The notes beneath the pieces were generated by a model. That model was given only the letters and a program-made list of their open reading frames with translations. It was not told the origin of the DNA and did no database searches. This document shows positions 1,762 through 54,308 of a DNA stretch of 64,000 bases, one piece after another. This DNA comes from a virus. A program made the translations under genes and the position numbers. Numbering within the stretch: position 1 is the first letter of the stretch; every line of letters begins with the position of its first letter. Where the stretch lies: IMG/VR virus record IMGVR_UViG_3300034102_003113; one strand, given 5' to 3'.

Positions 1762-1769
1762 CTTTAAAC
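1762..1769 (-). promoter_or_regulatory. GTTTAAAG candidate late promoter
   Basis: 27 nt upstream of the ATG at 1734; recurrent motif. Confidence 0.6.
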
Positions 1770-1789
1770 TACCAACCCTAGGTGGATTA

Positions 1790-1798
1790 TGGTATAAT
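1790..1798 (+). promoter_or_regulatory. Extended -10 sigma70-type promoter (TGGTATAAT)
   Basis: Perfect TGnTATAAT upstream of the GlcG/HbpS gene. Confidence 0.6.
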
Positions 1799-1825
1799 CT
1801 TATTTGATAAACACAACGGACTTTT

Positions 1826-2248
1826 ATGTATTTTGCAGCAGCAATCCAGGCAGTAAACGCCGGGCTTAAGAAGAGCAATGAACTTGGCACTAAGATGAAT
1901 ATTGCCGTGGTTGATCGTGGTGGGAACCTAGTTGCCTTTGCCCGTGAAGACGGGGCATGGGTCGGAAGTGTGGATATCTCGGTTAAGAAGGCAAAAACTG
2001 CAACATTCTTTGACATGGAGACTCAAGAAATTGGAAAACTATCTCAGCCGGGTGGTAGTCTGTATAATATTGAACATTCTAATGGCGGCCTTATTACTTT
2101 TCCTGGCGGGATCCCTCTGACTGCGCCCGATGGCACGATTCTTGGTGGGGTTGGTGTTTCTGGGTCGACTGTTGAGGATGATAAAGTTGTTGCTAATGCT
2201 GCCGCCGAAGGGTTTAAAACCGCTTTTGTAGAAACTTCCGCAGAATAG
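1826..2248 (+). CDS. GlcG/HbpS family haem-binding protein (DUF336)
   Basis: [20 protein letters not shown]...[12 protein letters not shown]...[12 protein letters not shown]...GGVGVSG..VEDD matches the family pattern. Confidence 0.88.
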
Positions 2249-2285
2249 GTTAAAGATTGGGGGCTACGTGCCCCTCTTCCTATAG

Positions 2286-2361
2286 GCCTCTATAGCTCAG
2301 TGGCCAGAGCACTCGCCTTGTAAGCGAGCGGTCCTCGGTTCAAATCCGAGTGGGGGCTCCA
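2286..2361 (+). tRNA. tRNA-Thr(TGT)
   Basis: Cloverleaf; anticodon arm CTCGC-CT-TGT-AA-GCGAG, GGTTCAAATCC T-arm, encoded CCA. Confidence 0.95.
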
Positions 2362-2433
2362 CGGGATGTAGCGCAGCGGTAGCGCGCCTGCTTTGGGAGC
2401 AGGATGTCGCAGGTTCGATCCCTGCCATCCCGA
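2362..2433 (+). tRNA. tRNA-Pro(TGG)
   Basis: CGGGATG acceptor; CCTGC-TT-TGG-GA-GCAGG; directly abuts tRNA-Thr. Confidence 0.95.
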
Positions 2434-2441
2434 TCGTTTAA

Positions 2442-2449
2442 GTTTAAAG
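2442..2449 (+). promoter_or_regulatory. GTTTAAAG candidate late promoter
   Basis: 26 nt upstream of the ATG at 2476. Confidence 0.55.
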
Positions 2450-2475
2450 TATCTAGTATCTAGTATCTCACTAAA

Positions 2476-2970
2476 ATGGCTATCAATTACACTCTGAATA
2501 TCGGCTCGGTGAAGAAAAGACTCACTGAAGGCGAATTTTCTAACGTTATTGTCGAGGCATCTTTTGGCGTTTCGGCAAACTCTGATTCTGTGACTACAAC
2601 TGACTCAGAAGGAAATGAGATCATTACCACCCCAGCTTTTTCATACTCGTGCGGTGGGACAAAAACCTTCTCTGTAAGTGGTCTTGACGCTGAAAATTTT
2701 GTTGAGTTTGAAAGCGTAACTAAGGACACTATTGTTCAGTGGCTCCTTGCTGAGGAAGGCGTAACTTCCGTTGAAGATTTTAGTTATGTTAAGAGTTCTA
2801 TTCAAAATATTGCTCAGAGAATCTATGAGCATACTCTAGAGGTTCCTGAGAGTATTGCAGGTCAAGATCCTGCCGGCGCTTCGGACTATGTATATACTCC
2901 TCCTGCCCCCGCTCCAGAAGTTCCTGCTTCCGAAGAAATTATTAATGCTCCCGCTGAACCAATTGCATGA
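2476..2970 (+). CDS. Hypothetical protein, probably fibre-associated
   Basis: 164 aa; the ENFVEFESVTKDTIVQWL pattern resembles small phage proteins found beside fibre genes. Confidence 0.55.
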   Translation: MAINYTLNIGSVKKRLTEGEFSNVIVEASFGVSANSDSVTTTDSEGNEIITTPAFSYSCGGTKTFSVSGLDAENFVEFESVTKDTIVQWLLAEEGVTSVEDFSYVKSSIQNIAQRIYEHTLEVPESIAGQDPAGASDYVYTPPAPAPEVPASEEIINAPAEPIA

Positions 2971-3644
2971 ATCTAACTTACCAATCATACTTAGGTAAGA
3001 CAATCGTATTTTGCCTCCCAGGGTCTCATTATTCTGGGAGGTTTTTAGTAAGTTTTACCGAACTCATACTTACTTGTAAGCAACTTGGAATGAGTACTAT
3101 CATCTCCCAAGACTATAGCTCCATGGTTAATTACGCCAGATGCAAAGTTGCCGGGGCTGATGTCACTAGAGGCAAAAACCAAGCACCTTTTGGCGGAAAA
3201 GTTAACTATGATTACATGATGTGGATTGATAGTGACATAAGATTTAATACTGAGAATTTTATGTCATTACTCAAGATGGACAAAGATATTGCCTCTGGTT
3301 GGTACTCCCAACCTGGTGGTATGACGCCTGTTGTTGAGACAATGGACGAGGAGTACTTCAAATCCCATGGGTATTTTGAATTCATCTCTTCAGATGAGAT
3401 GTCCAAACGCTCAGACCTCTTTAAAGCTGACTATGTAGGTTTTGGATGGGTGTTGATTAAACGTGGAGTATTTGAATCAATTTCCTATCCGTGGTTCGCA
3501 CCAAAATTGCTAAAAATAGGTGAAGATTTAGAAGATATGTGTTCGGAGGACGTGTCCTTTTGCATAGACGCAAGACAAGTTGGACATGAGATATGGGTAG
3601 ATCCGACCGTAAGAGTCGGGCATGAAAAACTATTGACCATTTGA
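2967..3644 (+). CDS. GT-A fold glycosyltransferase-like protein
   Basis: YDYMMWIDSD (DxD motif), GFGWVLIKRGVFE, SEDVSFC, VRVGHEK. Confidence 0.8.
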   Translation: MNLTYQSYLGKTIVFCLPGSHYSGRFLVSFTELILTCKQLGMSTIISQDYSSMVNYARCKVAGADVTRGKNQAPFGGKVNYDYMMWIDSDIRFNTENFMSLLKMDKDIASGWYSQPGGMTPVVETMDEEYFKSHGYFEFISSDEMSKRSDLFKADYVGFGWVLIKRGVFESISYPWFAPKLLKIGEDLEDMCSEDVSFCIDARQVGHEIWVDPTVRVGHEKLLTI

Positions 3645-3747
3645 GGTTTTTCTGATAGAATATTCTCATGAGCAGCAAAGGTCCAAACTTTGCGTAAGTC
3701 TCGCCCCTCCTAAGCCTCTCAATGATGCTCAAATCTGGAGGTCTCTT

Positions 3748-3821
3748 GTCTCAGTAGCTCAGATGGATAGAGCATCTCACTTCTAATGAGTTGGTCGGGG
3801 GTTCGAGTCCCTCCTGAGACG
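3748..3821 (+). tRNA. tRNA-Arg(TCT)
   Basis: GTCTCAG/CTGAGAC acceptor; TCTCA-CT-TCT-AA-TGAGT anticodon arm. Confidence 0.93.
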
Positions 3822-3847
3822 TTGGAAACCAATAGGTTTTCAAATAT

Positions 3848-3919
3848 TCCACAATAGCTCAGCGGTAGAGTAGGTGACTGTTAATCACTTTGTCCCTGGT
3901 TCGAATCCAGGTTGTGGAG
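3848..3919 (+). tRNA. tRNA-Asn(GTT)
   Basis: TCCACAA/TTGTGGA acceptor; GGTGA-CT-GTT-AA-TCACT. Confidence 0.93.
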
Positions 3920-3975
3920 TTGGATGGACTTTAGTTCTTCCATACGAACCGGGATCATCATATCCGGTTCATCCT

Positions 3976-4046
3976 GCGGGCATGGTGTAGAGGTAACATC
4001 TCAGCCTTCCAAGCTGCAGTCACCGGTTCGATCCCGGTTGCCCGCT
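3976..4046 (+). tRNA. tRNA-Gly(TCC)
   Basis: GCGGGCA/TGCCCGC acceptor; CAGC-CT-TCC-AA-GCTG. Confidence 0.93.
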
Positions 4047-4096
4047 TCCCCACAGCATTTTGTGGGGTTCATTTGACCAATAATTATTAAAAAATA

Positions 4097-4978
4097 ATGA
4101 AACTTCAAACAATTTTTGCCGCTGGTATTGTTGCTGCTACTGCAGTCTCTCCTGCCATGGCCCAAGTCACCAGTGTCACTCAATTGCGTGATGTTCAACC
4201 CACCGAGTGGTCCTATCAGGCCATTTCTAATCTGGTATCGCGTTATGGTTGCGTTGCTGGTTATCCCAATGGCACCTTCCAACCTGGTCAACCTGCTACT
4301 CGTGCTGAACTCGCAGCTCTGACCAATGCTTGCCTTGATCGCATTGTAGAGTTCCAGACAGTCACTGATGCCCAACTCGCTGCAGCACTTCGTGCTGAGT
4401 TTGCTAAAGAACTGGGTGCAACTAATGTTCGTGTAGCCCGCCTTGAAAAGGCCGCTGCTCAAAAGGCCCAAGGCGTTGGCAACTACGTTGGCATCGGTGT
4501 TCTTCTGAATAAGCAGGGTGTTGATGGTGGTGGTTATACCGAAAACCGCACTATCTCTGGTGGTACTCTTCAGACCCGTTACGCAGCAAAAACCTTTAAA
4601 AACCTGAATGCAGTATCTGTTCGTCCTTACCTGAATGCTGTTGCTGGTCCTAATAGTGACATTGGTACTGCTGGTGGCGCTCTGATCTCCTATGACTGGA
4701 GTATTGCCAAAGCCAAATCTGGTGTAAGTAGCGCTAACATCTATACCGGCGTTGGTTACCAAGTCCCCTTCACCAATGATACCCAGGCCAACTATCAGTC
4801 CGCTATCGGCGAGAAAGGTCAAGTAGTCCTGGCACTCGGCATTGAAGGTCGTCTCACCAACTCCTTGGTTGGTTTCGCCGATCTGAAATTCCCCACCACT
4901 AACGCCGGTAACGCCTACGGTGGTAGTAACGCTGCCTACTCGCCTGTCTTCACCACTGGCCTTGGTTTCAAGTTCTGA
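4097..4978 (+). CDS. SLH-domain outer-membrane protein (cyanobacterial porin-type N-terminus plus short beta-barrel)
   Basis: Signal peptide (..SPAMA/Q); QVTSVTQLRDVQPTEWSYQAISNLVSRYGCVAGYPNGTF...RAELAALTNACLDRI is the SLH segment of cyanobacterial porins; coiled coil; amphipathic strands ending in C-terminal Phe (GLGFKF). Confidence 0.85.
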   Translation: MKLQTIFAAGIVAATAVSPAMAQVTSVTQLRDVQPTEWSYQAISNLVSRYGCVAGYPNGTFQPGQPATRAELAALTNACLDRIVEFQTVTDAQLAAALRAEFAKELGATNVRVARLEKAAAQKAQGVGNYVGIGVLLNKQGVDGGGYTENRTISGGTLQTRYAAKTFKNLNAVSVRPYLNAVAGPNSDIGTAGGALISYDWSIAKAKSGVSSANIYTGVGYQVPFTNDTQANYQSAIGEKGQVVLALGIEGRLTNSLVGFADLKFPTTNAGNAYGGSNAAYSPVFTTGLGFKF

Positions 4979-5196
4979 TGACTGTTACCTCTAACGAGTT
5001 CGGCCAACAAAACATGTGGGCTAAAGAGCCCGAAATGTACATCGATCCTATCATCCAAGAAAAAATGCAAAAAGAAGCCTACCAAACTCACAACGAACGC
5101 GCAGAGATGCTCAATGGCCGACTGGCTATGCTTGGCATCATCGCGGCCTTTGGCTCCTACGCCCTAACCGGTCAGATTATCCCTGGCATCTGGTGA
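4978..5196 (+). CDS. hli: High-light-inducible protein
   Basis: AEMLNGRLAMLG chlorophyll-binding helix motif and TGQIIPGIW C-terminus. Confidence 0.95.
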   Translation: MTVTSNEFGQQNMWAKEPEMYIDPIIQEKMQKEAYQTHNERAEMLNGRLAMLGIIAAFGSYALTGQIIPGIW

Positions 5197-5282
5197 TGGT
5201 TGAGACCATCTTCACAATTACGAGCATCAGCTTCCTGGTGCTCCTTTTTCACTCTATCAATCAACTCTCTGAGACCTACTGA
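5196..5282 (+). CDS. 28-aa hydrophobic peptide coupled to hli (MVETIFTITSISFLVLLFHSINQLSETY)
   Basis: TGATG stop/start overlap with hli, one hydrophobic helix, ends in the terminator; below the ORF-track cutoff. Confidence 0.6.
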   Translation: MVETIFTITSISFLVLLFHSINQLSETY

Positions 5283-5297
5283 CTTAGGTCTTTTTTT
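5272..5297 (+). terminator. Rho-independent terminator
   Basis: AGACCTA-CTGACT-TAGGTCT followed by a T run. Confidence 0.65.
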
Positions 5298-5384
5298 GGA
5301 AGGTCAAGCAGATTGGCGACTGCAGCGCTCTTGAAAAGCGTCGAGGTGTTAAAGCCCTTGGGAGTTCGACTCTCCCACCTTCCG
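5298..5384 (+). tRNA. tRNA-Ser(TGA)
   Basis: GGAAGGT/ACCTTCC acceptor; GCGCT-CT-TGA-AA-AGCGT; long variable arm. Confidence 0.92.
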
Positions 5385-5431
5385 TTGTTTAAAGATACTA
5401 TTGAGAATAGTTTGTATTTATATATACCAAA

Positions 5432-5848
5432 ATGGCCATTCCATTTAGGGGCCCAGATGTAAGACTGGCCGTTTTAGAGGAGAAACTTGGCGTCTATGAG
5501 GAACTCTCAAAAGAGATGTTAGCAAAACTCGAGACAGCAGTAGATAAGATTTCCGAAGCTAATCAGAATGTTGCTAAGATCTTGGTTCGTCATGAGGAGC
5601 GACTTGATCAGACTATTCAATCTGATAATGCTATAATGAAACTACTTGAGGAATTAAAAAAATCTCACGAGAAGGATAATGAGAAGATGGGAGATGAGAT
5701 TGTAGCAATAAATACAAGGATTGATGAGTTATCCAAATTTCGTTGGATTCTCGCCGGGATATTATTAGTTGTTGGTATTGTAGCTGGTCAGGTAAACGTC
5801 TTAGAGTCTATGTTCCCTCAACCTCCATCAGTTCATTCCTCACAATGA
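5432..5848 (+). CDS. Coiled-coil protein with C-terminal transmembrane helix
   Basis: Heptad-rich N-terminus; KFRWILAGILLVVGIVAG hydrophobic segment; GTTTAAAG at 5387-5394. Confidence 0.7.
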   Translation: MAIPFRGPDVRLAVLEEKLGVYEELSKEMLAKLETAVDKISEANQNVAKILVRHEERLDQTIQSDNAIMKLLEELKKSHEKDNEKMGDEIVAINTRIDELSKFRWILAGILLVVGIVAGQVNVLESMFPQPPSVHSSQ

Positions 5849-5932
5849 GAGGACAACGCGTAGGGTTTATATATAACAAAGCCTGGAAAAGTGGTATAAT
5901 ACAGTGCGTATCTGTTGAATTTCCAGGTTATT

Positions 5933-6094
5933 ATGCCGTATTTCTTGTCAAAGACTCCACTGGCGCAGTTATCCCCGTGGATTCACGAGACATTTCATAC
6001 CTATAGAATTGAAATCATAGGAGTTTTAAGTTTTCTATTGATATTTGTTCCTATCTATGGTATAATGGTCATACACCAGAAACCTGGTAAATGA
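5933..6094 (+). CDS. 53-aa membrane protein
   Basis: MPYFLSK...IIGVLSFLLIFVPIYGIMVIHQKPGK; follows TGGTATAAT at 5892-5900. Confidence 0.5.
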   Translation: MPYFLSKTPLAQLSPWIHETFHTYRIEIIGVLSFLLIFVPIYGIMVIHQKPGK

Positions 6095-6098
6095 GTTC

Positions 6099-6170
6099 GG
6101 GACTGTCGCCTATTGGTTAAGGCCCACTGCTTATAACGGTGTGAAGAGGGTTCAATTCCCTCCAGTCCTA
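6099..6170 (+). tRNA. tRNA-Ile(TAT)
   Basis: GGGACTG/CAGTCCT acceptor; CACTG-CT-TAT-AA-CGGTG. Confidence 0.9.
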
Positions 6171-6173
6171 TCT

Positions 6174-6246
6174 GCTCCTTTAGCAATCTGGCGAATGCAA
6201 TCGACTCATAATCGATCGGAGGTGAGTTCGATCCTCACAAGGAGCA
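6174..6246 (+). tRNA. tRNA(CAT), elongator Met (or Ile2)
   Basis: GCTCCTT/AAGGAGC acceptor with paired 1:72 and no 3GC anticodon stem, so not an initiator; ATCGA-CT-CAT-AA-TCGAT. Confidence 0.88.
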
Positions 6247-6249
6247 CCT

Positions 6250-6332
6250 GCACGAGTGGCGGAATTGGTAGACGCCCGGGTTTTAGGTACCCGTATCCTT
6301 GCGATGTGGAGGTTCAAGTCCTCTCTCGTGCA
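6250..6332 (+). tRNA. tRNA-Leu(TAG)
   Basis: GCACGAG/CTCGTGC acceptor; CGGGT-TT-TAG-GT-ACCCG; variable arm. Confidence 0.92.
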
Positions 6333-6366
6333 TTTTTAGGTTAAAGGTTGTTATTGCAAGGGGTTT

Positions 6367-6675
6367 ATGCTCTCTACACAAACAAGATTAAGGCTCGAAG
6401 CGATTGCTGAAAAAATTGCTTTTCATCAAGAAGTTTCTTTTGAAGAGATGCAATGGGCGCAAAAATGGGCCGAGAATAATCGCTCAGCCGCTTCAATTCT
6501 TAACAAAGCCCGCAGAATTGCAGTCAATGGTATACCAGAAAAAGACTCACTCGATGAGTTTATGAATGATCTCGATCTTGGTGATCCTGATCCTTCCAAT
6601 CACCTCATCGGACCACAAGACCCAGATACCTTAGCCAGATGGTTTAAAGCTCCGCCATGGCTGAAAAACGATTAA
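6367..6675 (+). CDS. Hypothetical protein
   Basis: 102-aa ORF with GGTTAAAG variant motif at 6339-6346. Confidence 0.7.
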   Translation: MLSTQTRLRLEAIAEKIAFHQEVSFEEMQWAQKWAENNRSAASILNKARRIAVNGIPEKDSLDEFMNDLDLGDPDPSNHLIGPQDPDTLARWFKAPPWLKND

Positions 6676-6800
6676 TCACAGAAGAGGAGTTTAAGAGGCT
6701 ATCAGAGATGGCTAATAGTCTCAAACTCCGAGAACTATTCGAAGAACCATCCACCTACGAAGACGAGTTAGAGGACGAACGCTATGGGTTTATTATCTAA
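6657..6800 (+). CDS. 47-aa hypothetical protein
   Basis: MAEKRLITEEEFKRLS...LRELFEEPSTYEDE; fills the gap; read by hand. Confidence 0.5.
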   Translation: MAEKRLITEEEFKRLSEMANSLKLRELFEEPSTYEDELEDERYGFII

Positions 6801-6933
6801 GCAAGACTATGACCGCGTTATAGAAGCCCTTGAGTATTACCTGGAGTCACATCAAGAGGCTCCAGATTTTGACTCTTTAGGGTATAATAATTTAGTTAAT
6901 TGGTTAAAAATTTGCGTCTCAAAGGGCGATTAA
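6784..6933 (+). CDS. 49-aa hypothetical protein
   Basis: MGLLSKQDYDRVIEALEYY...; GAGGA RBS; stop overlaps the tRNA-Val 5' end. Confidence 0.5.
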   Translation: MGLLSKQDYDRVIEALEYYLESHQEAPDFDSLGYNNLVNWLKICVSKGD

Positions 6934-6995
6934 CTCAGCGGTAGAGTGCCTCCTTTACACGGAGATGGTCACTGGTTCGAATCCAGTATCGCCCA
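6924..6995 (+). tRNA. tRNA-Val(TAC)
   Basis: GGGCGAT/ATCGCCC acceptor; CTCC-TT-TAC-AC-GGAG. Confidence 0.93.
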
Positions 6996-7039
6996 TGTCA
7001 GAAGATCCTGACAAATGCTTTTTTGTTTAAAGTAACCGT

Positions 7040-7225
7040 ATGGAAGATATTACTTTTTCAGACAGTATAAAAATTAAACCCGGCGGGAGCATTAGTTTTA
7101 CCGGTGATGCTAAAGCTACCCTCATTATTGACGATGAGGTAATCACTCTATCGGCCTCCACGTCACTAGAGACCTATTGCGAAAAACATCCAGGGGCGCC
7201 TGAATGCAAAATTTACGATGTGTAA
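7040..7225 (+). CDS. Protein with CP12-like C-terminal motif
   Basis: LETYCEKHPGAPECKIYDV (C-x8-C, ECxxYD) matches the CP12 C-terminus; AWDxVEEL core absent. Confidence 0.7.
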   Translation: MEDITFSDSIKIKPGGSISFTGDAKATLIIDDEVITLSASTSLETYCEKHPGAPECKIYDV

Positions 7226-7232: not shown

Positions 7233-7262
7233 TTGACATGACCCTCATCCCTGGAGTATGAT
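7233..7262 (+). promoter_or_regulatory. sigma70-type promoter TTGACA-N18-TATGAT
   Basis: Near-consensus -35 and -10 upstream of the repair/replication cluster. Confidence 0.6.
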
Positions 7263-7284
7263 TGCTCTAGGGATTTTTTTTGTC

Positions 7285-7809
7285 ATGAACATCTTCTTCC
7301 TTGATCACGATCCTAAAACTGCTGCGGAGTACCACTGCGATAAGCATGTTAACAAGATGATTATCGAGCATCTCCAGATGATGAGTGTTGCTCTTGCGCA
7401 TCACGGGTTTGATCCGGCTCGGAAGAAAGATGGAGAGTTTTATAAGGTTCGTGGTTTTAAAAACCATCCTTGTACGCTTTGGGTTAAGGAATCCATGCCA
7501 AATTTTGTCTGGACATGGAAACTTACTTGGTATCTATGTGAGGAATTCAAGACCAGATATGGCAAAGAGCATTCTGGTAAAAATAGTCTAAAATCCATTG
7601 ATCTTGAGTCGGTACTACGTGACTACCCTGAGGTAGGTTTTACCTCTCCTGCCCAGGCCATGCCTGATTTTTGTAAAGTTCCTCATAACCCGGTTAAAGC
7701 CTATCGTAATTACTATAACTGGATGAAGTGGCGATTTGCCACATGGAAAACCGAAGAACCGGATTGGTGGGCCCCCAGTTGTCTTCTAGAAGCAAAAAAT
7801 GAATACTAA
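7285..7809 (+). CDS. Pyrimidine-dimer DNA glycosylase / DenV-related protein
   Basis: MNIFFLD..P..AAEYHCDKHVNKMIIE..QM, NHPCTLWV, QAMPD, AYRNYY motifs; start moved to MNIF. Confidence 0.75.
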   Translation: MNIFFLDHDPKTAAEYHCDKHVNKMIIEHLQMMSVALAHHGFDPARKKDGEFYKVRGFKNHPCTLWVKESMPNFVWTWKLTWYLCEEFKTRYGKEHSGKNSLKSIDLESVLRDYPEVGFTSPAQAMPDFCKVPHNPVKAYRNYYNWMKWRFATWKTEEPDWWAPSCLLEAKNEY

Positions 7810-15084: not shown

Positions 15085-15231
15085 ATGTCTAACCCAACTG
15101 ACGAACAACTTGATGAACTCTGGGATGAGATTGGAGGTTATTACAATCTTTATTCCGAAGTTAGAAATACTATCCGTGAGGCACTCAATCGTTGGTGTAC
15201 ACAAGAACCAGAGGTAAAAGAAAATGCCTGA
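15085..15231 (+). CDS. 48-aa hypothetical protein
   Basis: GGAGG RBS; MSNPTDEQLDELW... Confidence 0.55.
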   Translation: MSNPTDEQLDELWDEIGGYYNLYSEVRNTIREALNRWCTQEPEVKENA

Positions 15232-15351
15232 CGACCTTCAAAGAGAAGAAGAACTATTCTTCAAAGCACTTGAAGAATACAAAGAGAAAAAATCACAAGA
15301 ACCAACAGACAAAACCACAAACACTCTACCAGCAGTAATCGCAGCAGTATT

Positions 15352-15576
15352 ATGACTAACCAACAAAAAGCAGAAGAGCTCCTAAAAGTTTTCTGGGAAA
15401 GTCAAGCACACAATCCTGCTTGGCTGCTCCAAGAAACTCTTCAACATCTTCGTAAGCAACTATCAGGAAATAATGTTCTTGATTTTTATGATGAGCAAGG
15501 TATGATGTATAATTATGGGTGGGATGACTGCCTCAAAGAGATCGATGCTATTTGTGATGAACTTTTAGAACTATGA
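15352..15576 (+). CDS. Hypothetical protein
   Basis: Coupled array. Confidence 0.6.
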   Translation: MTNQQKAEELLKVFWESQAHNPAWLLQETLQHLRKQLSGNNVLDFYDEQGMMYNYGWDDCLKEIDAICDELLEL

Positions 15577-38856: not shown

Positions 38857-40791
38857 ATGGCCGACGACCGCCCTTCAATAACAAAACCAAAGACTGGATA
38901 TTATGACAGATACTTCGGTCTAGGAGTAGGTCAGGGTGGTCTTGCGGGGTATAAGGCCGATCCTTATGCCTTTGCTGGTAATGGATACATCACAGGTGGC
39001 ACAATCCTTCCTCGCCGTGATGATGTTCTAATTGAGGAAGGTGGTGGCGGGCCTCGAGCAATCGAGAAATACATGCGACTGTTTAACGACAGTCAAATTA
39101 TCTCTGCGTGGGAAAAACTAACCGGGGAGATTATTCAGCGGAAGTGGGAAGTTGATCCTGCGAGTCCCTCCGATCGTGATGAGGAGGTAGCAGAATTTGT
39201 CCGTCAAGTGCTTTACCGCATGGGGACTAATACTCGCCAAGCATATGGCAAGGAGATGCTTGTCAGTTCTAACTCTGCTTTTGATACGTTTATCAGAGGG
39301 TTATGTGAATCTCTGATTCTTGGTATCAGCATTGGTGAGATTTGCTGGATGCGCCAAGGAAACTACATTGTCCCATCGGAAGTAAAGATTCGTGACCCAC
39401 GTAGGTTCTTATTTGTCCTTAATGAGGATGGCACAATCTCCCCACGCCTTCTCACTGTGGAAAGTTCGGTAGAAGGGATTGCGTTACCCCTCCGCTCTAT
39501 GGTCATTCATAGACACTGGACCTATAGTAATTTTATGGATCCGTATGGCACGGGTCTTGGTCGCCAACTCTACAGTCTTGTGGAGTTCAGACGGACGCTA
39601 ATGTCCTTCTGGTTACAGTATGCTGATAAGCACACAACCCCTACCGCAGTTGGTAAATTCTCTCTTGGCACCCCAGAAGATGAGGTAAATTCACTCTTTA
39701 CTGCTCTCCAACGTCTTGGTCAAGAAACAGCAATTGTTATCCCAGACGAGATGGATATCAAGTGGCTAGAGAGCCAAGGTCGTTCTGAAGTATATGAAAA
39801 ACTTATTGACTACGTCGATCAGCAGATTAGTTTTGTAATCAACGGTGAGAATACAGTAGGCCAGGAGACAGGCAATGTCGGATCGTATGCTCGTGATCAG
39901 ATCTCTGATTCGGTTCGGATGCGTAAGGCTAAAGCGTTTTCGGAAGAACTTGACGAGACGCTTAATGCAACTCTTATTCGCTGGATTGTTGAACTTAACT
40001 ATCCAGGGGCACCGGTTCCTAGACTTCGTAGAAGCTTTGATGATCTAGAGCAACGCGAAGATCCAGTTAAGATCGTGCAAATGCTCACCCAGCTCCAGGC
40101 CATTGGGTACGAGGTCAAAGACCTTGATTGGGTAAGGGATAAGCTTGAGATTCCATCTCTGGCTAAGGTAGATATGAATCAGATGATGGGCGGAGCACCT
40201 GGTGGTATGCCTCCTGGAACTCAACAGGCACCAATGGCCGAGGATAAAAACCCAGAGGACGTTGAAAATGGTTCTATGGGAGCATTCGGAGCCGATCCTG
40301 GTGCCCATCTCGAGTTGTTTGACTTCTCCGAGTTTGATGAAGATAATGACCTTGATGACAAAACCAAGAAGGACAAGGTTGCTAAGATCATTGCCTCCAA
40401 ATTCGATGGTGGACTCGATGATGTTGGTTTCCAGAGAATTATCTCGACAGGGGATTCGGAAGCGGACGCCTCTAACTCCAGACTCCATATTGATGAGTAC
40501 ACTTCACCCGGTGAGATCGCCCACGGAGCCCGTAGACTCATCGAAGAGATTAAGAAAGTTCCTTACATTCTCCCAGAAGACTCCATGCTGAGTTCCTCAT
40601 TCGAGATGGAGTTGGCCTCTATTGAAGCCCAGGTGAGGGTGGATCGGATTAATGGGTGCGATGTTCAACGCCTTATTGACCTCTACAAGAAGATTTACCG
40701 TCTTGACCGCAAGGTGGTGTACAAAGAATGCGTTGTGGTGGATTGCCAAAAGGCCGGATATATGAAGTACTTCGCTCCATACTTTATGTAG
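38857..40791 (+). CDS. Portal protein (DUF935 / Mu gp29-like)
   Basis: WEVDPAS, GISIGEICW, PYGTGLGR.LY, WLQYADKH..P..VGK, AIVIPDEM.I, GSYA...S.VR, TLIRWIVELN; GTTTAAAG at 38812-38819. Confidence 0.88.
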   Translation: MADDRPSITKPKTGYYDRYFGLGVGQGGLAGYKADPYAFAGNGYITGGTILPRRDDVLIEEGGGGPRAIEKYMRLFNDSQIISAWEKLTGEIIQRKWEVDPASPSDRDEEVAEFVRQVLYRMGTNTRQAYGKEMLVSSNSAFDTFIRGLCESLILGISIGEICWMRQGNYIVPSEVKIRDPRRFLFVLNEDGTISPRLLTVESSVEGIALPLRSMVIHRHWTYSNFMDPYGTGLGRQLYSLVEFRRTLMSFWLQYADKHTTPTAVGKFSLGTPEDEVNSLFTALQRLGQETAIVIPDEMDIKWLESQGRSEVYEKLIDYVDQQISFVINGENTVGQETGNVGSYARDQISDSVRMRKAKAFSEELDETLNATLIRWIVELNYPGAPVPRLRRSFDDLEQREDPVKIVQMLTQLQAIGYEVKDLDWVRDKLEIPSLAKVDMNQMMGGAPGGMPPGTQQAPMAEDKNPEDVENGSMGAFGADPGAHLELFDFSEFDEDNDLDDKTKKDKVAKIIASKFDGGLDDVGFQRIISTGDSEADASNSRLHIDEYTSPGEIAHGARRLIEEIKKVPYILPEDSMLSSSFEMELASIEAQVRVDRINGCDVQRLIDLYKKIYRLDRKVVYKECVVVDCQKAGYMKYFAPYFM

Positions 40792-40840
40792 TAGGGCTTA
40801 GTTTAAATATACATTAGATATAACGTTTAGTTATCCCATC

Positions 40841-41269
40841 ATGTTAAATTATAAGCCCGTAGCTCAATCACAATTTTGGATTCAGGCTTCTCCCTTCGCC
40901 CACTATTTCACAAATTTTAGTGGCATCAGAGACACTGCTGGAACCTCCCAATACGCTGACGGTGTAAGAGGCCGTATTTTCAACCTTCGCGGACCTCGCA
41001 CCCTCTCCGAAGTTACTCTTTCTGTACCTTTCGATCCCGAAAAGCACGCTGATATCGTCGACTTCTGGAAGGCCTATGGTTGTGAGTTCGTAACTCTAAC
41101 CATCACTCCCGTCTCTTGCGGTGAAGACCCTCAACCCCTCGGTCAACGCACCATCACCATTCCCGATGCTCAGATGACAAGTCTTAACTTCGGCGCCGCG
41201 GATCGTACCTCATCCAACCCTGCAACCATCGAACTTACGTTCGTAATGGACACATTCACTTATAACTGA
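40841..41269 (+). CDS. Tail tube protein
   Basis: 142 aa; FTNFSG...SEVTLS.PFDP...ADRTSSNPATIELTF; late-type motif at 40801. Confidence 0.65.
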   Translation: MLNYKPVAQSQFWIQASPFAHYFTNFSGIRDTAGTSQYADGVRGRIFNLRGPRTLSEVTLSVPFDPEKHADIVDFWKAYGCEFVTLTITPVSCGEDPQPLGQRTITIPDAQMTSLNFGAADRTSSNPATIELTFVMDTFTYN

Positions 41270-43224: not shown

Positions 43225-45225
43225 ATGGCAGAACTTAGAGACCGCATTTACCACCGTCGCTCACCTATCGTTTCAAAAAGACCACAACTTTTTGACATCG
43301 ATGACGGAGAGTTAGCGCTCAACTATAATACCAACGAGCCCGGTCTCTACTTCAAAGATCTTGCGGATGATGGCACAAGGCGGATTAGGAAGATTGGTCC
43401 GATTCACTTTGGACCTACTCCGCCAAATTATTACGCCGCATCCCAAGGATATCCCACTGAGTTATCAAATGGGGAATGTTGGATAGATACAAGTGGTGGA
43501 GTAGAAGAATATATTCTTAAAGTATGGAACGCAGCGTCTTCTCAGTGGATAGAAACATCAGCGATTTATGCCCGCAGAGATGAAAATCTTGACCAGTTTC
43601 TTGACGGTGAGGATGGAGATGACTTTATCCATACCGACGGGATAAGATTAAAAATCAATAATAAGACCGCATTAGCAGGATTCTCCACGGCCGACGGTGA
43701 TAAACTTATTATCAATGAGGACAATAAATTTGCTAATGGCGTAGAAGTAAATGGCACGTCATTCCTCCTCACGACTGAACAAATTGAGGCGATTGGTAAC
43801 GATATCATCCTCAAGCCCCATGAGGGCTATATGTTTACAACAGATAGTGCTACTGGAACGACTCAGACTATCTTTGGTTATAATTCCCATGGTCTTTTTA
43901 ACGGGGAAAGAATTTACGTCCAAGGTACCCTCATCAACGGAACTACGCCATCCCCTGTTGCTGCTGGGGAGTACTTTGTGGCCGATGCAACCACAAACAC
44001 ATTCCGTCTGAAGACAGCCGGTGGGGCATATGTAGGCTCAACAGGGAATATTTATATCTCCTACTCACCGGAAATAATTGTTGATAGGGACCGGAATGTT
44101 ATCCAGGCCGGTAATTTTGGTCTAAAGAGCATCGATGACATTATCAATCTCTCTTCAAATCAGATTTCTGAGCAGACTTGGGATGTGTTTCACAACCCTA
44201 CAAACGGAAATGTTCGCGTCTTTGCCAGAGTTGGTAATGAAGTAGAGCAGATCGAGACATCAATATTATCTATCGATGTGAAGAGCGCGGAGACATCCGA
44301 CTCTATTGAGATTGGCGATCCAGTCTACTACGTAGGAAAAGACTTTGCTACAGGTCTTACCAAGGTGGCCAGGGCAAAAGCCTCAGATAACACAAAAATG
44401 AGAGCGATTGGAGTGGCCCAGGCCGAGATTTCTCCCAACTCCAAAGGCTCTATTACTCTTCTCGGTGAAGTGAAAGGGTTCAATACAACTAATCTTGATG
44501 GGGCATTGCCAGGCGGCACTAGTAATGTCGGCAGAGTGGTATACGTGGCAGAGAATGGTGGCTTACGTCTCTCTCAGCCAAATACAGTTACCAATATCTC
44601 CCAGCAGATCGGCATTCTTATCCGTGAAGATGCTACTGACGGTGCCATCATGGTCAACCATCCCAGCTCCTTTGTATCTCTCCCCAACCTTTCAGAGAAT
44701 TACATGTGGGCGGGTATTACTAATGATATAGCAACTGCCCACTATCTACTCCCAACAACTTTTAAGCGGACATACAATAGCCTCACTGGAGTCTGGAGTA
44801 TTGGTCTTGCAGATAATATTGAGTTTGGTGGGTATAAGTTTGGGTCGGATGGAGCAACCGGGTCAGGAATCGAGACATTCATCGAGACGACATCAGTCCC
44901 TGCGCCAACTTACACCCCACTAGACGTTGAGAGATTTAGTACGTCGTATAGATCAGCAAAGTACATTGTCCAGGTGACAGGAGTTAGTGCCGATGGTACT
45001 GATTCCCCGGTGTACCAAGTTGGGGAGATTCTTATCATCCATAATGGGGTAGATGCATTTGTTGTAGAGTATGGCATGGTGAGTACATATGCCAATGAGA
45101 GACTGGGGCAGTTTGATGCATACATAGACGGAGGGGATTCAGAGGTTGTACTCACCTTCCAGAAGTTTCCACTCGTCACGGGATCAGTAGAAATTAAAGC
45201 AGTTCGTACCTCTATTTTAGTTTAA
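43225..45225 (+). CDS. Tail fibre/baseplate-attached structural protein
   Basis: KRP...DGELALNYN..EPGLYFKD N-terminal anchor; C-terminal YRSAKYIVQ...EILIIHNG...EYG domain. Confidence 0.7.
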   Translation: MAELRDRIYHRRSPIVSKRPQLFDIDDGELALNYNTNEPGLYFKDLADDGTRRIRKIGPIHFGPTPPNYYAASQGYPTELSNGECWIDTSGGVEEYILKVWNAASSQWIETSAIYARRDENLDQFLDGEDGDDFIHTDGIRLKINNKTALAGFSTADGDKLIINEDNKFANGVEVNGTSFLLTTEQIEAIGNDIILKPHEGYMFTTDSATGTTQTIFGYNSHGLFNGERIYVQGTLINGTTPSPVAAGEYFVADATTNTFRLKTAGGAYVGSTGNIYISYSPEIIVDRDRNVIQAGNFGLKSIDDIINLSSNQISEQTWDVFHNPTNGNVRVFARVGNEVEQIETSILSIDVKSAETSDSIEIGDPVYYVGKDFATGLTKVARAKASDNTKMRAIGVAQAEISPNSKGSITLLGEVKGFNTTNLDGALPGGTSNVGRVVYVAENGGLRLSQPNTVTNISQQIGILIREDATDGAIMVNHPSSFVSLPNLSENYMWAGITNDIATAHYLLPTTFKRTYNSLTGVWSIGLADNIEFGGYKFGSDGATGSGIETFIETTSVPAPTYTPLDVERFSTSYRSAKYIVQVTGVSADGTDSPVYQVGEILIIHNGVDAFVVEYGMVSTYANERLGQFDAYIDGGDSEVVLTFQKFPLVTGSVEIKAVRTSILV

Positions 45226-45267
45226 AGCCATATAGATTCTATATGCTCGGGGGAGCTGTGAACCCGT

Positions 45268-45489
45268 ATGGCAAACAACAAAAAATTTAATGTCAGGCAC
45301 GGCCTGAGTTCTGGTGCTGGGGTCACTCAGCGTGATATTGTAAGCGATGTTGGTGAGGTGTTGGATGTTGGTGTGCTCACCAACCTTACTACTGTCACGA
45401 AGACAAATGTCGTAGCGGCCATCAATGAGATTAATGATGGTAACGCCAAGATCGACGATGTCATCGCCCTATCCATAGCACTGGGTTGA
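45268..45489 (+). CDS. Small fibre connector protein
   Basis: KKFNVRHGL start, LTT..KTNVVAAINE, DDVIALSIALG end; GTTTAAAG at 45220-45227. Confidence 0.65.
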   Translation: MANNKKFNVRHGLSSGAGVTQRDIVSDVGEVLDVGVLTNLTTVTKTNVVAAINEINDGNAKIDDVIALSIALG

Positions 45490-50037: not shown

Positions 50038-52422
50038 ATGCCTAATCTTATTGGAACTGGTAATAATCAAGTCCCAACAAATGGAATGTTGGGTGGATTG
50101 GCATACCAATCTCCTGATAATGCAGTCATCAAAACTCTAGAACTTACTAATTTATCGGGCCATAATTCAGTAATTCCAAGTAATGCTATAGATGTTTTTG
50201 TGTATGATACTCGCAAAGACTCTGATGGTGGGCAATGGCGCAAGCGCACACAACATACCTCTTGGTACAATGAAACACTAAATACCGAAATTCGTGGAAG
50301 TCGTAGAGATTTTCCTGCGGTTGCTGTGATTGTTGCTACTACTACCACCATAACGATTTATGACGGCGATGATCCTGATATGCCAATGTGGATCGTTATA
50401 GCCAGAAATCCTGGAACTCTATTTTTAACAGATGGATATTCATGTTTAATTTCATCTATAACTGCATTAAATGGCATAATAAGTGTTGGTATTTATGCCA
50501 CAAATGAAGTTGGATACTATGGCGGATTAATTACTTTAAATCTTGTAAAAGATATAGGATTTAAATATGGGGGGAATAGTATTTTCTATAGCGGTAGAGG
50601 TAGTTATGGAACAAAACTTCGTGATATTGTTAACCCAACTTGGTATCAATTATTTTTATCTCCTAGTACATTTAGTCTTGTAAGCGGATATACAAATGAC
50701 GTGGCAATGACAGTGCTTCCAAATGCACCCATTGATAGTACTACGGGTCTTCCAGTTCCTACGATTGTTGTTGCTACTACTAGTGGTGTTAATATCATCA
50801 AGGATGATGGGACCATTATAAGTTGGTTGACAACAGTTGGTAATGTTAGTCGAGTATCAATATCAAAAAATTATGAAATCTTTGCCGGTGGTGGGGGTGG
50901 TATTGCATTTTATGCCTGGTATAATAAAACAATTCCAACATTATCTTCAAATAATTCTGATGCTATTTTTGGAACATTATATTCTTCTACATCATTACCA
51001 AGACTAGGTTCTAATGGAAATAGTGTTGTAGGTGATAAAAGTATATTTTCAAATGATACCATATATTTTTCTGAATACGCAGGTATCTCAACAAATGACA
51101 AATTAATCATACTCAATCAAAATACTTCACATTTTGGAAATAGTTTGGTTGCGTATCTTACTTCATCTTATAACACAGGATGGATGTACGGAGACATCAA
51201 AGGTGCTTTTCTGTCTGATACAAGTACTGCAAGTGTGACTGGAACTGAACTCGTTACAAATGGAACTTTTATTAGTGATGCAAGTGGATGGACTACAACT
51301 GGGGTGAGTTCTTCAGTTTCAAGTGGCAGATTACGAATTACTAATACAACAGTAACAAATGGAGAAGTGTATCAAGGATTTGCAACTCAAGTAGGTAAAA
51401 AATATGTTTTAACATTAGAATGTTATAGCGGAACAAGTAATGCATCATTTTTTATATCAAATGCTGCTCCCGATAACTACTTAGGAGATTTGGGATATGT
51501 AAGTCCTGCATCTGGTTCCTATACTATGTACTTTACTGCGTCTGCAACTACAACCTATTTAAGATTAGAAAATGTTAATACTCCTATTGGCGCGTATTCG
51601 GAATATGACAATATTTCAGTCCGTCTTGTCGAACCAGACCGCAGTGTAAACAACAAAGGACTTGCAGTATACGGAACCATCACTAAGACTCCTGTTGCAA
51701 CTGGTTCAAATCTGGTTGCCTATAGTGGATGGTCCAACTCCAATTATTCGCTCAGACCGGCAGGTGTTACTGACTTAAATAATTCCTCAATGACATTTAT
51801 GAGTTGGTATAAAGGAGGTAGTTATGCTGGAGAAGAAGTTATCGTAAGTACTGGAGATTATGGTAGTGCAAGTGAAGTTAGAAGTATATATTTAACCCCT
51901 AGTGGAGTTCCTGGATTTGCCGGGTGGAGTAATGATTATAATCCAGGTAATAGTATTAGGGATAATACTTGGCATTTTATATGTGTAGTAATTCAATATG
52001 TATCAGGAACAACTTATAATATTTCTGTATATGTGGATGGAGTTCTAACGGGCACAACTAGTAAGTCTTTATCTACATTTACAAATACGGCAATAAATGT
52101 TGGTGGGGGGTCTATTCCAGGAACATATTTTGCCAATGGTTCTTTATCTTTAGTTAGAGTTTCAACAACAATTCCATCTCCAGAACAAATCAAAAAAATC
52201 TATGAGGACGAGAAGGCCCTCTTCCAATCAAATTCACAGGCCACCCTTTTTGGCTCTTCGGATATCGTCACGGCCCTGGCCTACGATGATACAACATCGC
52301 TACTTCACGTGGGCACATCGTCGGGCCGTTCTGAGTTTAAAGGACTGAAAAGAGTGGGTAATACCACAACCGCAGTGACCACATCCATCTCCGCCTCAAA
52401 TGGCCTTGTAGCAGAGCAATAA
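50038..52422 (+). CDS. LamG-domain structural protein
   Basis: VFVYDTRKDSDGGQWRKR N-terminus; WHFICVV...VYVDG...GSLSLVR LamG-like segment. Confidence 0.7.
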   Translation: MPNLIGTGNNQVPTNGMLGGLAYQSPDNAVIKTLELTNLSGHNSVIPSNAIDVFVYDTRKDSDGGQWRKRTQHTSWYNETLNTEIRGSRRDFPAVAVIVATTTTITIYDGDDPDMPMWIVIARNPGTLFLTDGYSCLISSITALNGIISVGIYATNEVGYYGGLITLNLVKDIGFKYGGNSIFYSGRGSYGTKLRDIVNPTWYQLFLSPSTFSLVSGYTNDVAMTVLPNAPIDSTTGLPVPTIVVATTSGVNIIKDDGTIISWLTTVGNVSRVSISKNYEIFAGGGGGIAFYAWYNKTIPTLSSNNSDAIFGTLYSSTSLPRLGSNGNSVVGDKSIFSNDTIYFSEYAGISTNDKLIILNQNTSHFGNSLVAYLTSSYNTGWMYGDIKGAFLSDTSTASVTGTELVTNGTFISDASGWTTTGVSSSVSSGRLRITNTTVTNGEVYQGFATQVGKKYVLTLECYSGTSNASFFISNAAPDNYLGDLGYVSPASGSYTMYFTASATTTYLRLENVNTPIGAYSEYDNISVRLVEPDRSVNNKGLAVYGTITKTPVATGSNLVAYSGWSNSNYSLRPAGVTDLNNSSMTFMSWYKGGSYAGEEVIVSTGDYGSASEVRSIYLTPSGVPGFAGWSNDYNPGNSIRDNTWHFICVVIQYVSGTTYNISVYVDGVLTGTTSKSLSTFTNTAINVGGGSIPGTYFANGSLSLVRVSTTIPSPEQIKKIYEDEKALFQSNSQATLFGSSDIVTALAYDDTTSLLHVGTSSGRSEFKGLKRVGNTTTAVTTSISASNGLVAEQ

Positions 52423-52425
52423 CCC

Positions 52426-53550
52426 ATGGCAGTACGCATACAAAAACCAACAGTTAACGTCAGAGAAAAGTTAGCAGAACTTGAGAGACCTATTGGGATA
52501 AATGGGGCCGCTTTGATGGCCACCAATACTCCTCAAGATGCATTTAGTTTGATTGGTGCTGGTAGAAAAAATATATTAATTAATGGCGGAATGCAAATAT
52601 GGCAAAGAGGAACATCTTTTTTAAATTTGCCAAATCAAGGAGCAACAAACTATACCGCAGATAGATGGAATGCAACTAGGTATTCATCTGGGGACCATGA
52701 TGTTACCAGACAAGAAGTTAATTATCTCGGATTTCAATATGCATTGAGATCTGAAAGAAGCACTGGAGATTCAAGTAATACATCTAGATATATAAATCAT
52801 CCTATAGAAAGTTCTATCTCTAGAACTCTTGCTGGAAAAAATGTAGTATTATCTTTTTATGCCAGAAGAGGTGCTGGTGCAGCAACAACTGCTGCAGTTA
52901 ATGGATCACATATAACTGCATATATAGTATATCATGTTGATAATAGTTTTTTGGATGATGGGATGTTTTACGTTGGATTTAAAAATGCATCCACATCAAC
53001 AGCAGCATTTAAAGCCATAATTTTGTCAACAGACTTTCAAAAATTTGAACTTACTGGATTTATTCCATCAAATGTTAGGCAAATTGGAATTGCTTTTGGA
53101 ACACCAGAAGGTATTCCAACTGCAGTTGCAAATGATTATTTTGATATTACTGGAGTTCAATTAGAAGAAGGCAGAGTTGCTACACCCTTTGAGCATCGTA
53201 GTATTGGTGAAGAACTTGCATTGTGTCAGAGGTATTTTTATACTTTAGAACAGCAGCAAAATTCTGGAGGAATAACAGGAACAGCTACAAATACTGTTAC
53301 TAGGTATCAATTTCCAGTTGAAATGAGAGTTGCACCGACTGCATCTATTATTACTGCAGGAAGCTGGATTCTTGGCAATGATTACAGTAGTAATTACACG
53401 GCATCCACAGCAAGTATTATAGCATCCTCATTAACAAAAAAAGGTGGAAGAATTGTAATTGGTGGATTTGCTGCCTTTAATACTAATTTTTTCGTAGCGG
53501 GTACAGATTCTTCTGGCACAGCTATTATTGGGTTAAATTCTGAACTATAA
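52426..53550 (+). CDS. Fibre-associated protein
   Basis: RKNILINGGMQIWQRGT...ITGVQLEEG..ATPFEHRS.GEELALCQRYF. Confidence 0.75.
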   Translation: MAVRIQKPTVNVREKLAELERPIGINGAALMATNTPQDAFSLIGAGRKNILINGGMQIWQRGTSFLNLPNQGATNYTADRWNATRYSSGDHDVTRQEVNYLGFQYALRSERSTGDSSNTSRYINHPIESSISRTLAGKNVVLSFYARRGAGAATTAAVNGSHITAYIVYHVDNSFLDDGMFYVGFKNASTSTAAFKAIILSTDFQKFELTGFIPSNVRQIGIAFGTPEGIPTAVANDYFDITGVQLEEGRVATPFEHRSIGEELALCQRYFYTLEQQQNSGGITGTATNTVTRYQFPVEMRVAPTASIITAGSWILGNDYSSNYTASTASIIASSLTKKGGRIVIGGFAAFNTNFFVAGTDSSGTAIIGLNSEL

Positions 53551-53554
53551 AAAT

Positions 53555-54286
53555 ATGAAATATAAACTAACACAAAGCAATACGCATCGTCTTTCCGACA
53601 ACGCTTTTATTCCATCAGACCCAGCAAACTCGGACTACCAAAAATTCATCCAAGACGTTGCTGAGCAAGGAATACAAATCGTAGAAGGTCCAGACATTAT
53701 CGAACCTTCCTACGTTGAACTCAGACAACAAGAGTATCCTCCTCTACAAGAACAACAGGATATGCAGTACTGGGACCAAATCAATGGAACCACAATCTGG
53801 CAAGACACAATAACTGAAATCAAAGAACAGTATCCAAAGACTATCACGGGTGGGGTGACGATCGGTCCGGTGCCATCCTGGGTCCAGGAGGCCGCGGATA
53901 ACTGGATGTTTAATAAGCAACTCAGGGACTATGCTGGTGCCGTAGATCGCTTGGCCCAATACATCCTTGCGGAAGGCCGCCCCGAACTCACAGAAGAGAT
54001 CATAGTTGGCGAGGAGCCTATGCTCGATGAGAACGACCTCCCCACCCTTGACGAGGAGGGCAACCCTCTCACCATCCCCGTCACCCAGACCATCACCATC
54101 CAGATGGCAATCGATCCGCTACCGGAGTTTATCGAGGTGACCACCGGGTTTGACATCGAGACTGGCGATCCCATCACCGAGAAGGTCCGTAACCCCGATA
54201 TCGTCAGGGACGAGGAGGAGAGAGCCGCGGCTCAGCGTACTATCGACTCTACCCCTCAGGCCATAGTGGACGCTTTCTGGGGCTAG
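53555..54286 (+). CDS. Fibre assembly-type protein
   Basis: AFIP.DPANSDYQ and RQQEYP...EQ.DMQYWD motifs; chimeric GC content. Confidence 0.6.
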   Translation: MKYKLTQSNTHRLSDNAFIPSDPANSDYQKFIQDVAEQGIQIVEGPDIIEPSYVELRQQEYPPLQEQQDMQYWDQINGTTIWQDTITEIKEQYPKTITGGVTIGPVPSWVQEAADNWMFNKQLRDYAGAVDRLAQYILAEGRPELTEEIIVGEEPMLDENDLPTLDEEGNPLTIPVTQTITIQMAIDPLPEFIEVTTGFDIETGDPITEKVRNPDIVRDEEERAAAQRTIDSTPQAIVDAFWG

Positions 54287-54300
54287 TAGTGAGCCACTAA

Positions 54301-54308
54301 GTTTAAAG
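54301..54308 (+). promoter_or_regulatory. GTTTAAAG candidate late promoter
   Basis: 32 nt upstream of the ATG at 54341. Confidence 0.6.

Follow-up and report, generated by a model that had tools for sequence, protein, structure and literature searches.

Phage-encoded sigma factors such as gp28 and gp33-34 of SPO1 or gp36 of phiEco32 redirect the host core RNA polymerase to middle and late promoters, and the promoters that these proteins use consist of two parts, a -35-like and a -10-like box. The SigB promoter of Bacillus has the form GTTTAA-N12-15-GGGWAW, with GTTTAA being the -35 consensus of SigB in both Bacillus and Staphylococcus. The late promoter of T4 is a single 8-bp box located at -10, without a -35 element and followed by A/T-rich DNA, and it occurs at ~50 sites on both strands, 32 of which are perfect (PMC2988020). 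For cyanobacteria, the SigF promoter of Synechocystis has been described as a two-part element with TAGGC at -32 and GGTAA at -12 (PMC2532724). Here we report on the 8-bp word GTTTAAAG, referred to below as the box, in a 64,000-nucleotide (nt) stretch of viral DNA (IMG/VR record IMGVR_UViG_3300034102_003113), which was analysed at its full length and is called the window. The box precedes almost every virion-gene block of the window and of its relatives, typically by 20-45 bases, and we consider it probable that it is the core of the late promoter of TIM5-like phages, a single 8-bp element with no -35 partner that would be read by a phage SigF-like sigma factor.

The window belongs to a TIM5-like cyanomyovirus, a marine cyanophage. 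Its portal protein (gene 38857-40791) is 63% identical to those of S-TIM5 and its three sequenced relatives, similarity to any other isolate being far lower, and the gene order of S-TIM5 from ~13.7 to 90 kb agrees with that of the window. Three references were used: S-TIM5 itself (172 kb; loci L001-L004); G001, a 159-kb IMG/VR genome with terminal repeats that is rated 100% complete and is the closest complete relative (portal 91% identical); and G007, a 123-kb contig of a sister clade. The neighbourhood of the portal gene was surveyed in 47 IMG/VR loci. Relatives with GTTTAAAG are referred to as T-type and those of the sister clade, which have a G at position 4 of the box, as G-type.

Distribution, geometry and conservation of the box

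Fifteen exact copies of GTTTAAAG are present in the window, compared with 3.08 +/- 1.67 expected, and none of the dinucleotide shuffles (0/100) reached this number. Non-coding DNA makes up 5.4% of the window, yet 10 of the 15 copies fall entirely within it (binomial p = 5e-10); 11/15 are located at most 60 nt upstream of a co-oriented gene start, these 11 all being within 40 nt, and the wholly coding copies are all in sense orientation (4/4). The word also emerges from an unbiased scan in which every oriented 8-mer was counted over the 60 nt that precede each gene, genome by genome: GTTTAAAG ranks first in the window (11/15 copies upstream, p = 4e-13), in S-TIM5 (24/36, p = 2e-27) and in G001 (23/34, p = 1e-26), and the top upstream word of G007 is GTTGAAAG / TTGAAAGC (25/40, p = 1e-27). 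Complete genomes carry 34-36 exact copies each, with variants being extra. Chance or base composition as the source of the box is ruled out by the shuffle counts, the 8-mer ranking and the bias in orientation and position. In S-TIM5, GATTAAAG is also enriched upstream of genes (8/16 copies) and is probably a tolerated variant of the box; TGATATAA / GATATAAT are enriched likewise and look like host-type extended -10 early promoters.

A first-pass annotation of this DNA had listed 13 exact copies and proposed an enrichment test by strand and position; the box proved to be strongly enriched, oriented and restricted in position, and the coordinates, strands and start-codon distances of all 13 copies are correct. 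Also verified were four one-mismatch variants (29011-, 40801+, 30101+ and 6339+), the back-to-back arrangement of boxes at the two divergent junctions and the copy beside the terminator of the capsid gene. Two exact copies, 6642+ and 52335+, both coding and in sense orientation, were absent from that list. The accompanying claim that early genes carry TGnTATAAT instead fared less well: this word is found at 10 sites against 4.2 expected, a number reached by 3/100 shuffles, and the sites are mostly in the tRNA region, with only one (19215) near the small-gene block. The stated absence of the box from replication genes does not hold strictly, since the copy at 7025+ heads a block that runs into the genes for a DNA-binding protein and DNA polymerase.

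Box-headed genes of the window encode the baseplate/tail-fibre connector, the head-tail adaptor, tube, portal, sheath and large virion proteins, and all six transcription-unit heads of the morphogenesis region (six/six) have a box or a variant, namely 1762-, 22383-, 30087-, 30101+, 37225- and 37238+. Virion proteins of S-TIM5, as annotated in its record, are encoded by 16/25 box-headed genes versus 31/187 other genes (Fisher p = 1.6e-6), and the remaining virion genes are mostly located downstream within box-headed units. Strong and clear cases of a terminator followed by a box are seen at the capsid site of the window and in S-TIM5, G001 and G007, the overall count of terminators directly upstream of a box being modest (7/85 versus 18/577 control windows).

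In information profiles of de-duplicated instances (123 T-type and 83 G-type), neither a -35 box nor a second hexamer is conserved in the range from -25 to +45. Signals outside the box are a C at position 9 and T14-A15-G16 in the G-type and, weakly, T/A at positions 10-11 and A at 15-17 in the T-type. The distance between box and start codon has a sharp floor at 20-22 nt, peaks at 22 nt in the T-type and at 21 nt in the G-type and reaches 45-57 nt at its longest. The floor excludes an activator site or a -35 role, for which the room is too small, and the geometry fits a -10-like element whose transcripts would start ~7-8 nt downstream and have leaders of ~14 nt or more. In the 65-bp spacer of junction 2 (37203-37267), the two boxes are the sole conserved words. 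With box positions 4-9 aligned to the host sigma-A -10 element, keeping the A at -11, the combination of A at -11 and T at -7 is lacking, position 9 being variable in the T-type and C in 70% of the G-type instances; the morphogenesis region shows no excess of sigma-70-type promoter matches over background (44 versus 39.8 expected). For a two-part group 3 sigma promoter, with boxes 12-17 bp apart, no second conserved block was found on either side of the box, and gaps of 18-22 nt are too short. A palindromic operator at the divergent junctions was rejected, as the arm spacing varies (5, 6, 8, 11 and 17 nt) and most sites are single copies.

Nine orthologous sites have the exact box in both S-TIM5 and the window, namely those after the gp157 homolog, after the capsid-gene terminator, inside the protease gene, at one arm of junction 1, at both arms of junction 2 and before the portal, gp131 and gp127 genes; at the sheath and gp146 sites, S-TIM5 has the exact box and the window a one-mismatch variant. 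Among the 47 IMG/VR loci, the portal-gene box is kept in all lineages whose portal reaches 78% identity or more, and the pair at junction 2 is kept in all T-type lineages, with most loci that reach the junction retaining both arms. In spacer alignments of S-TIM5, G001 and dozens of IMG/VR contigs, the box is conserved and the flanking non-coding bases are variable. By these comparisons, the box is a lineage-wide regulatory word.

Loci without GTTTAAAG have GTTGAAAG at the equivalent places, usually as GTTGAAAGC-N4-TAG, and in G-type loci G replaces T at box position 4 at all sites; at junction 2, the pair of the sister clade is CTTTCAAC / GTTGAAAG. The tube site reads GTTTAAAT throughout the window clade and in S-TIM5, GTTTAAAG in L026/L036 and GTTGAAAGC in most sister-clade loci. 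On the portal tree, the G-type loci group together in a single clade (13 loci, SH-aLRT 100), for which one change suffices, and L026/L036 represent a T-type lineage that is sister to it. The concerted change at dozens of sites suggests a single trans-acting reader.

A candidate sigma factor and the rival explanations

A candidate for this reader is gp108 of S-TIM5, which is annotated as a sigma factor (SigF in newer records) and whose gene adjoins the terminase gene. Six-frame searches recovered exactly one Sigma70_r2 gene above the cut-off in each of G001, S-TIM5 and G007, and homologs of gp108 are present in 9/10 large relatives searched. The G001 gene is located ~52 kb beyond the portal gene, which would place the equivalent position outside the window. 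The first-pass annotation had proposed a reader encoded there, and the search of the rest of the genome, done on relatives, yielded one sigma-family protein outside the window-syntenic region. In hmmscan, the Sigma70_r2 match is borderline (23.7 versus 24 bits) and the matches to SigF and SigB/F/G (NCBIfam) are far below the cut-offs. At E <= 1e-10, this small family comprises ~30 clusters out of 1.8 billion representatives, and the phage proteins are 240-260 amino acids long. An AlphaFold model (30 sequences, mean pLDDT 78) contains sigma2, sigma3 and sigma4 domains and is matched by Foldseek to full-length holoenzyme sigmas over 217-241 columns with a probability of 1.0.

When the phage sigma is aligned with cyanobacterial SigA, R and C replace two conserved tryptophans, which we take to be part of the -10-reading helix. 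The region 2.3/2.4 peptide is WVNRCLQFHMLNY, invariant in 24 T-type loci, or WLNRSLTFQLLNY, invariant in 13 G-type loci; the two differ at five residues, and the rest of the protein falls to 59-78% identity within classes. A host-type extended -10 word, TGGTATAAT, is found upstream of the sigma operon in both genomes checked, S-TIM5 and G001, in keeping with a possible earlier transcription of the operon by the host enzyme. In a distant phage, L103, the gene for a sigma relative that is 35% identical (P0006) again adjoins the terminase gene, and the intergenic regions have TATAATATACA-like words in place of GTTNAAAG. The contigs of two further sigma relatives, P0001 and P0002, are too short for box analysis, and no viral contig encoding the relative P0005 was found.

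We hypothesize that the host core RNA polymerase, joined by a SigF-like sigma of the S-TIM5 gp108 family that would be supplied from outside the window, recognizes the box as an extended -10-like element. The hexamer from -12 to -7 would correspond to box positions 4-9, extended upstream by GTT, and transcription would begin where the sister clade keeps T14-A15-G16. The sigma could itself be made earlier by the host holoenzyme via TGGTATAAT and then turn on ~25-35 box-headed units. Our more specific view, that the three-domain SigF-like sigma reads a single 8-bp extended -10-type box without -35 contact, with the pairs GTTTAAAG/WVNRCLQFHMLNY and GTTGAAAGC/WLNRSLTFQLLNY differing by one base and five residues, is tentative and falls somewhat short of probable. 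That transcription starts at the box and that the sigma is its reader is what we infer; each computational check came out in favour of the single-element late promoter, read by a phage sigma or activator encoded outside the window, that the first-pass annotation had suggested.

Several points weigh against this interpretation. The promoter function is deduced from sequence alone. Several exact copies precede genes whose late character is not obvious, namely the copies following tRNAs and the one at 7025+ with its DNA-binding protein/DNA polymerase block, and 10-19 copies per genome are located in coding sequence. The portal and protease copies overlap coding sequence, and their conservation may be partly protein-driven. 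The sigma4-like domain has been kept though no -35 box is seen. As to the link between sigma and box, the T-to-G switch is one evolutionary event and not repeated co-variation. The excess divergence of the sigma in the G-type (~24 points) ranks second among 48 orthologs, and six other non-structural proteins show an equal excess (21-28 points), which indicates a module-wide history; specific co-evolution of sigma and box, as judged by excess divergence, was not borne out.

The sharply bounded distance to the ATG, with its peak at 21-22 nt, would look alike for a ribosome-loading element, and an action of the box in RNA, in which it would lie in the 5' leaders of late transcripts and serve either as a cleavage site of a phage or host endoribonuclease or as an AU-rich translational enhancer/operator at a set distance from the start codon, would agree with its strict co-orientation with the mRNA, to which the sense orientation of all four coding copies conforms; nor can sequence alone tell primary from processed 5' ends. 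We nevertheless regard such an RNA-level role as unlikely. The junction boxes are 5-17 nt apart in spacers of 60-90 bp, and the promoters would then have to sit in the opposite gene, while the paired boxes would fold in RNA as a perfect hairpin. Moreover, several boxes are located just past strong intrinsic terminators, where little upstream RNA is expected, the gaps are not fixed but extend to 45-57 nt, and the spacers offer no other conserved word that could serve as the promoter, host-type matches being at background.

That the box is instead the DNA site of another phage late protein, either an activator or appropriator of the host sigma-A holoenzyme or an unrecognized phage RNA polymerase, seems to us quite improbable. 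The link between sigma and box is circumstantial, given the one switch event and the module-wide divergence, and these phages encode many proteins of unknown function as well as an annotated DNA-binding protein (S-TIM5 gp160, window 7258-7809); a search for T7-type RNA polymerases gave no matches, as was also the case for the control genomes. However, the end of the box is only 20-22 nt from many starts, a core promoter and not an activator position, and it is not followed by a host-type -10 hexamer. The annotation of S-TIM5 contains no RNA polymerase, and a dedicated sigma is conserved in the large genomes, with its DNA-reading helix frozen per box class. A very improbable variant of the sigma reading would make the box the -35 element of a two-part SigB/SigF-type promoter, with a weakly conserved -10 and many leaderless late mRNAs. 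It would be in line with the nearest sigma families, SigF and SigB/F/G by their weak NCBIfam matches, with the sigma4 domain of the model and with the modal gap of 21-22 nt, which is near the expected start site given a 12-14-bp spacer. It is at odds with the profiles, which hold zero information at positions 19-30 from the box start in both the 123 T-type and the 83 G-type instances, and with the many gaps of 18-22 nt, which would place the ATG upstream of the start site; the sole downstream signal, T14-A15-G16, is 5 nt past the box and thus too near for a -10 hexamer.

Sites of the box and other features of the window

In the morphogenesis region, the leftmost box (1762-1769, -) is located 27 nt before gene 61-1734, which encodes the baseplate wedge/tail-fibre connector and corresponds to the structural protein gp024 of S-TIM5. 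The exact copy at 22383-22390 (-) stands 24 nt before the head-tail adaptor gene (21564-22358), with orthologs at 41609- in S-TIM5 and 39748- in G001, and 26 nt upstream of it is the intrinsic terminator of the major capsid gene, a GC-rich hairpin with a T-run (22417-22432, -). Within the protease/scaffold open reading frame (ORF; 23970-25904), an exact copy at 25394-25401 (-) precedes an in-frame ATG (25370) by 23 nt and is found in S-TIM5 (44488-) and G001 (43068-) as well; this arrangement suggests that, as in Mu-like head modules, an internal promoter may give rise to a nested C-terminal product. The tail sheath gene (25908-28976) is preceded at a distance of 34 nt by the variant GTTTAAGG (29011-29018, -), where S-TIM5 has the exact box (48472-).

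Divergent junction 1 is formed by an exact box at 30087-30094 (-), 22 nt before gene 29711-30064, as the left arm and the variant GTTTAAAT at 30101-30108 (+), 13 nt before gene 30122-30529 (S-TIM5 gp146, a virion protein), as the right arm. Both arms of divergent junction 2 are exact and 22 nt from their genes: 37225-37232 (-) precedes the gene for a 1298-amino-acid virion protein (33306-37202) and 37238-37245 (+) precedes gene 37268-37717. The portal box at 38812-38819 (+) lies 37 nt before its gene, overlaps the 3' end of ORF 38657-38848 and is GTTGAAAG(C) in the sister clade. Further along this strand, GTTTAAAT at 40801-40808 (+) precedes the tail tube gene (40841-41269) by 32 nt, and an exact copy at 45220-45227 (+), which overlaps the stop codon of 43225-45225, precedes gene 45268-45489 (S-TIM5 gp131, a virion protein) by 40 nt. 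The exact copy at 54301-54308 (+) stands 32 nt before the gene for a 1720-amino-acid virion protein (54341-59503; S-TIM5 gp127, with the S-TIM5 box at 72263+). A more doubtful exact copy is that at 52335-52342 (+), in the 3' end of ORF 50038-52422 and 83 nt before gene 52426-53550.

In the tRNA region (2433-7032), four of the five tRNA cluster ends (Pro, Ser, Leu and Val) are followed within 30 nt by a box or a one-mismatch variant, and S-TIM5 has GTTGAAAG, GATTAAAG and GTTTAAGG after three of its tRNAs. The exact box at 2442-2449 (+) follows tRNA-Pro after 8 nt and is itself followed, 26 nt further on, by gene 2476-2970; in S-TIM5 the corresponding place is occupied by GTTTAAGG, and G001 lacks a box there. 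Located 1 nt past tRNA-Ser and 37 nt before gene 5432-5848, the exact copy at 5387-5394 (+) is kept in G001 (17762+), as is the variant GGTTAAAG at 6339-6346 (+), which is 5 nt past tRNA-Leu and 20 nt before gene 6367-6675. Exact copies are also found at 6642-6649 (+), within the 3' end of ORF 6367-6675 (19509+ in G001), and at 7025-7032 (+), 29 nt past tRNA-Val. At both of these (6642-6659 and 7025-7042, +), an ATG follows exactly 7 nt past the box, near the predicted start, and opens a conserved ORF of 47 amino acids and an ORF of 61 amino acids (7040-7225), respectively. G001 keeps a box or variant, GTTTAAGG at the second site, and the 7-nt gap at both, and the first ORF is also conserved in sequence. 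It is possible that the two transcripts are leaderless mRNAs; as a general pattern, leaderless mRNAs were rejected, since an ATG at +7 is not enriched across all instances. The same region contains, between gene 2967-3644 and tRNA-Arg (3747), a match to the Rfam abiF RNA motif RF03085 at 3706-3742 (+), with 52.7 bits against a gathering score of 37.

An exact box at 19314-19321 (+) lies past the gp157 homolog and 120 nt before a gene for an RlpA-like lipoprotein (19442-19816) and has counterparts at 36682+ in G001 and 39537+ in S-TIM5. No annotated gene is found downstream of the S-TIM5 copy, which points antisense into gp156, whereas in the window and in G001 the RlpA-like gene follows after ~120 nt. 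Five copies of TGATGAAC at 15111-16607, close to the 3' ends of small neighbouring ORFs, represent a repeat in the coding sequence of a small family of paralogous genes and not a promoter word.

DNA-level matches of the window to known phages consist of short tail-fibre segments only. At ~47835 and ~55030-55110, tail-fibre DNA is 89-92% identical to that of the Synechococcus podophages S-CBP3, S-CBP4 and KBS-S-2A, which suggests that receptor-binding segments are exchanged between unrelated cyanophage families. The structural proteins of G001 differ to about the same degree from those of S-TIM5 and of G007, and its replication and regulatory proteins are 13-28 identity points further from those of G007. 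These uneven distances indicate a modular (mosaic) history of the clades.

Significance and comparison with known systems

TIM5-like phages are a widespread cyanophage lineage apart from the T4-like phages, and the literature searched contains no description of their gene regulation. A 2022 paper on TIM5-like phages mentions no promoters or motifs, the word 'sigma' appearing there only as a supplier's name, and neither a link between S-TIM5 and a promoter nor transcriptome or 5'-end data for TIM5-like phages were found in the literature searched, which did not cover the original 2012 S-TIM5 paper. A late promoter word of this kind would allow late transcription units to be located in isolate genomes as well as in metagenomic contigs, and it would aid the calling of gene starts, of small ORFs and of nested products such as that proposed for the protease/scaffold gene. 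The one-base switch together with the frozen sigma helix would represent a natural specificity pair for studies of promoter recognition and for orthogonal cyanobacterial expression parts. If the reading is true, the two sigma/box pairs would provide ready orthogonal specificities and a new model of -12-position recognition in cyanobacterial RNA polymerase.

In anatomy, the closest described system is the T4 late promoter, including that of T4-like cyanophages: both would use a single 8-bp -10 box without a -35 element and with A/T-rich DNA downstream, present in tens of copies on either strand ahead of late genes, and both tolerate single-base variants. The sequence of the box differs, as the first-pass annotation had noted. 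The T4-type word TATAAATA has 2 copies in the window against 4.3 expected, neither of which heads a gene, and in view of this lack of enrichment a T4-type promoter is ruled out, the enriched word being GTTTAAAG. The readers also differ, presumably a three-domain SigF-like sigma of 240-260 amino acids here and, in T4, the small gp55 with gp33 and the gp45 clamp. Neither gp55 and gp33 nor clamp coupling is annotated in S-TIM5, where no search was aimed at them. The cyanobacterial SigF promoter is two-part, in contrast to the single box found here, and bears no resemblance to it. The first six bases of the box are identical to the SigB -35 hexamer; however, the box has no -10 partner, and its start-codon geometry is unfit for a -35 element. 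With SPO1 and phiEco32, the system would share a phage-encoded protein of the sigma-70 family and phage-specific promoters, the difference being that one conserved box is present here. A phage sigma acting on phage-specific late promoters is a known principle, of which the box represents a new instance with an unusual anatomy and not a new kind of system.

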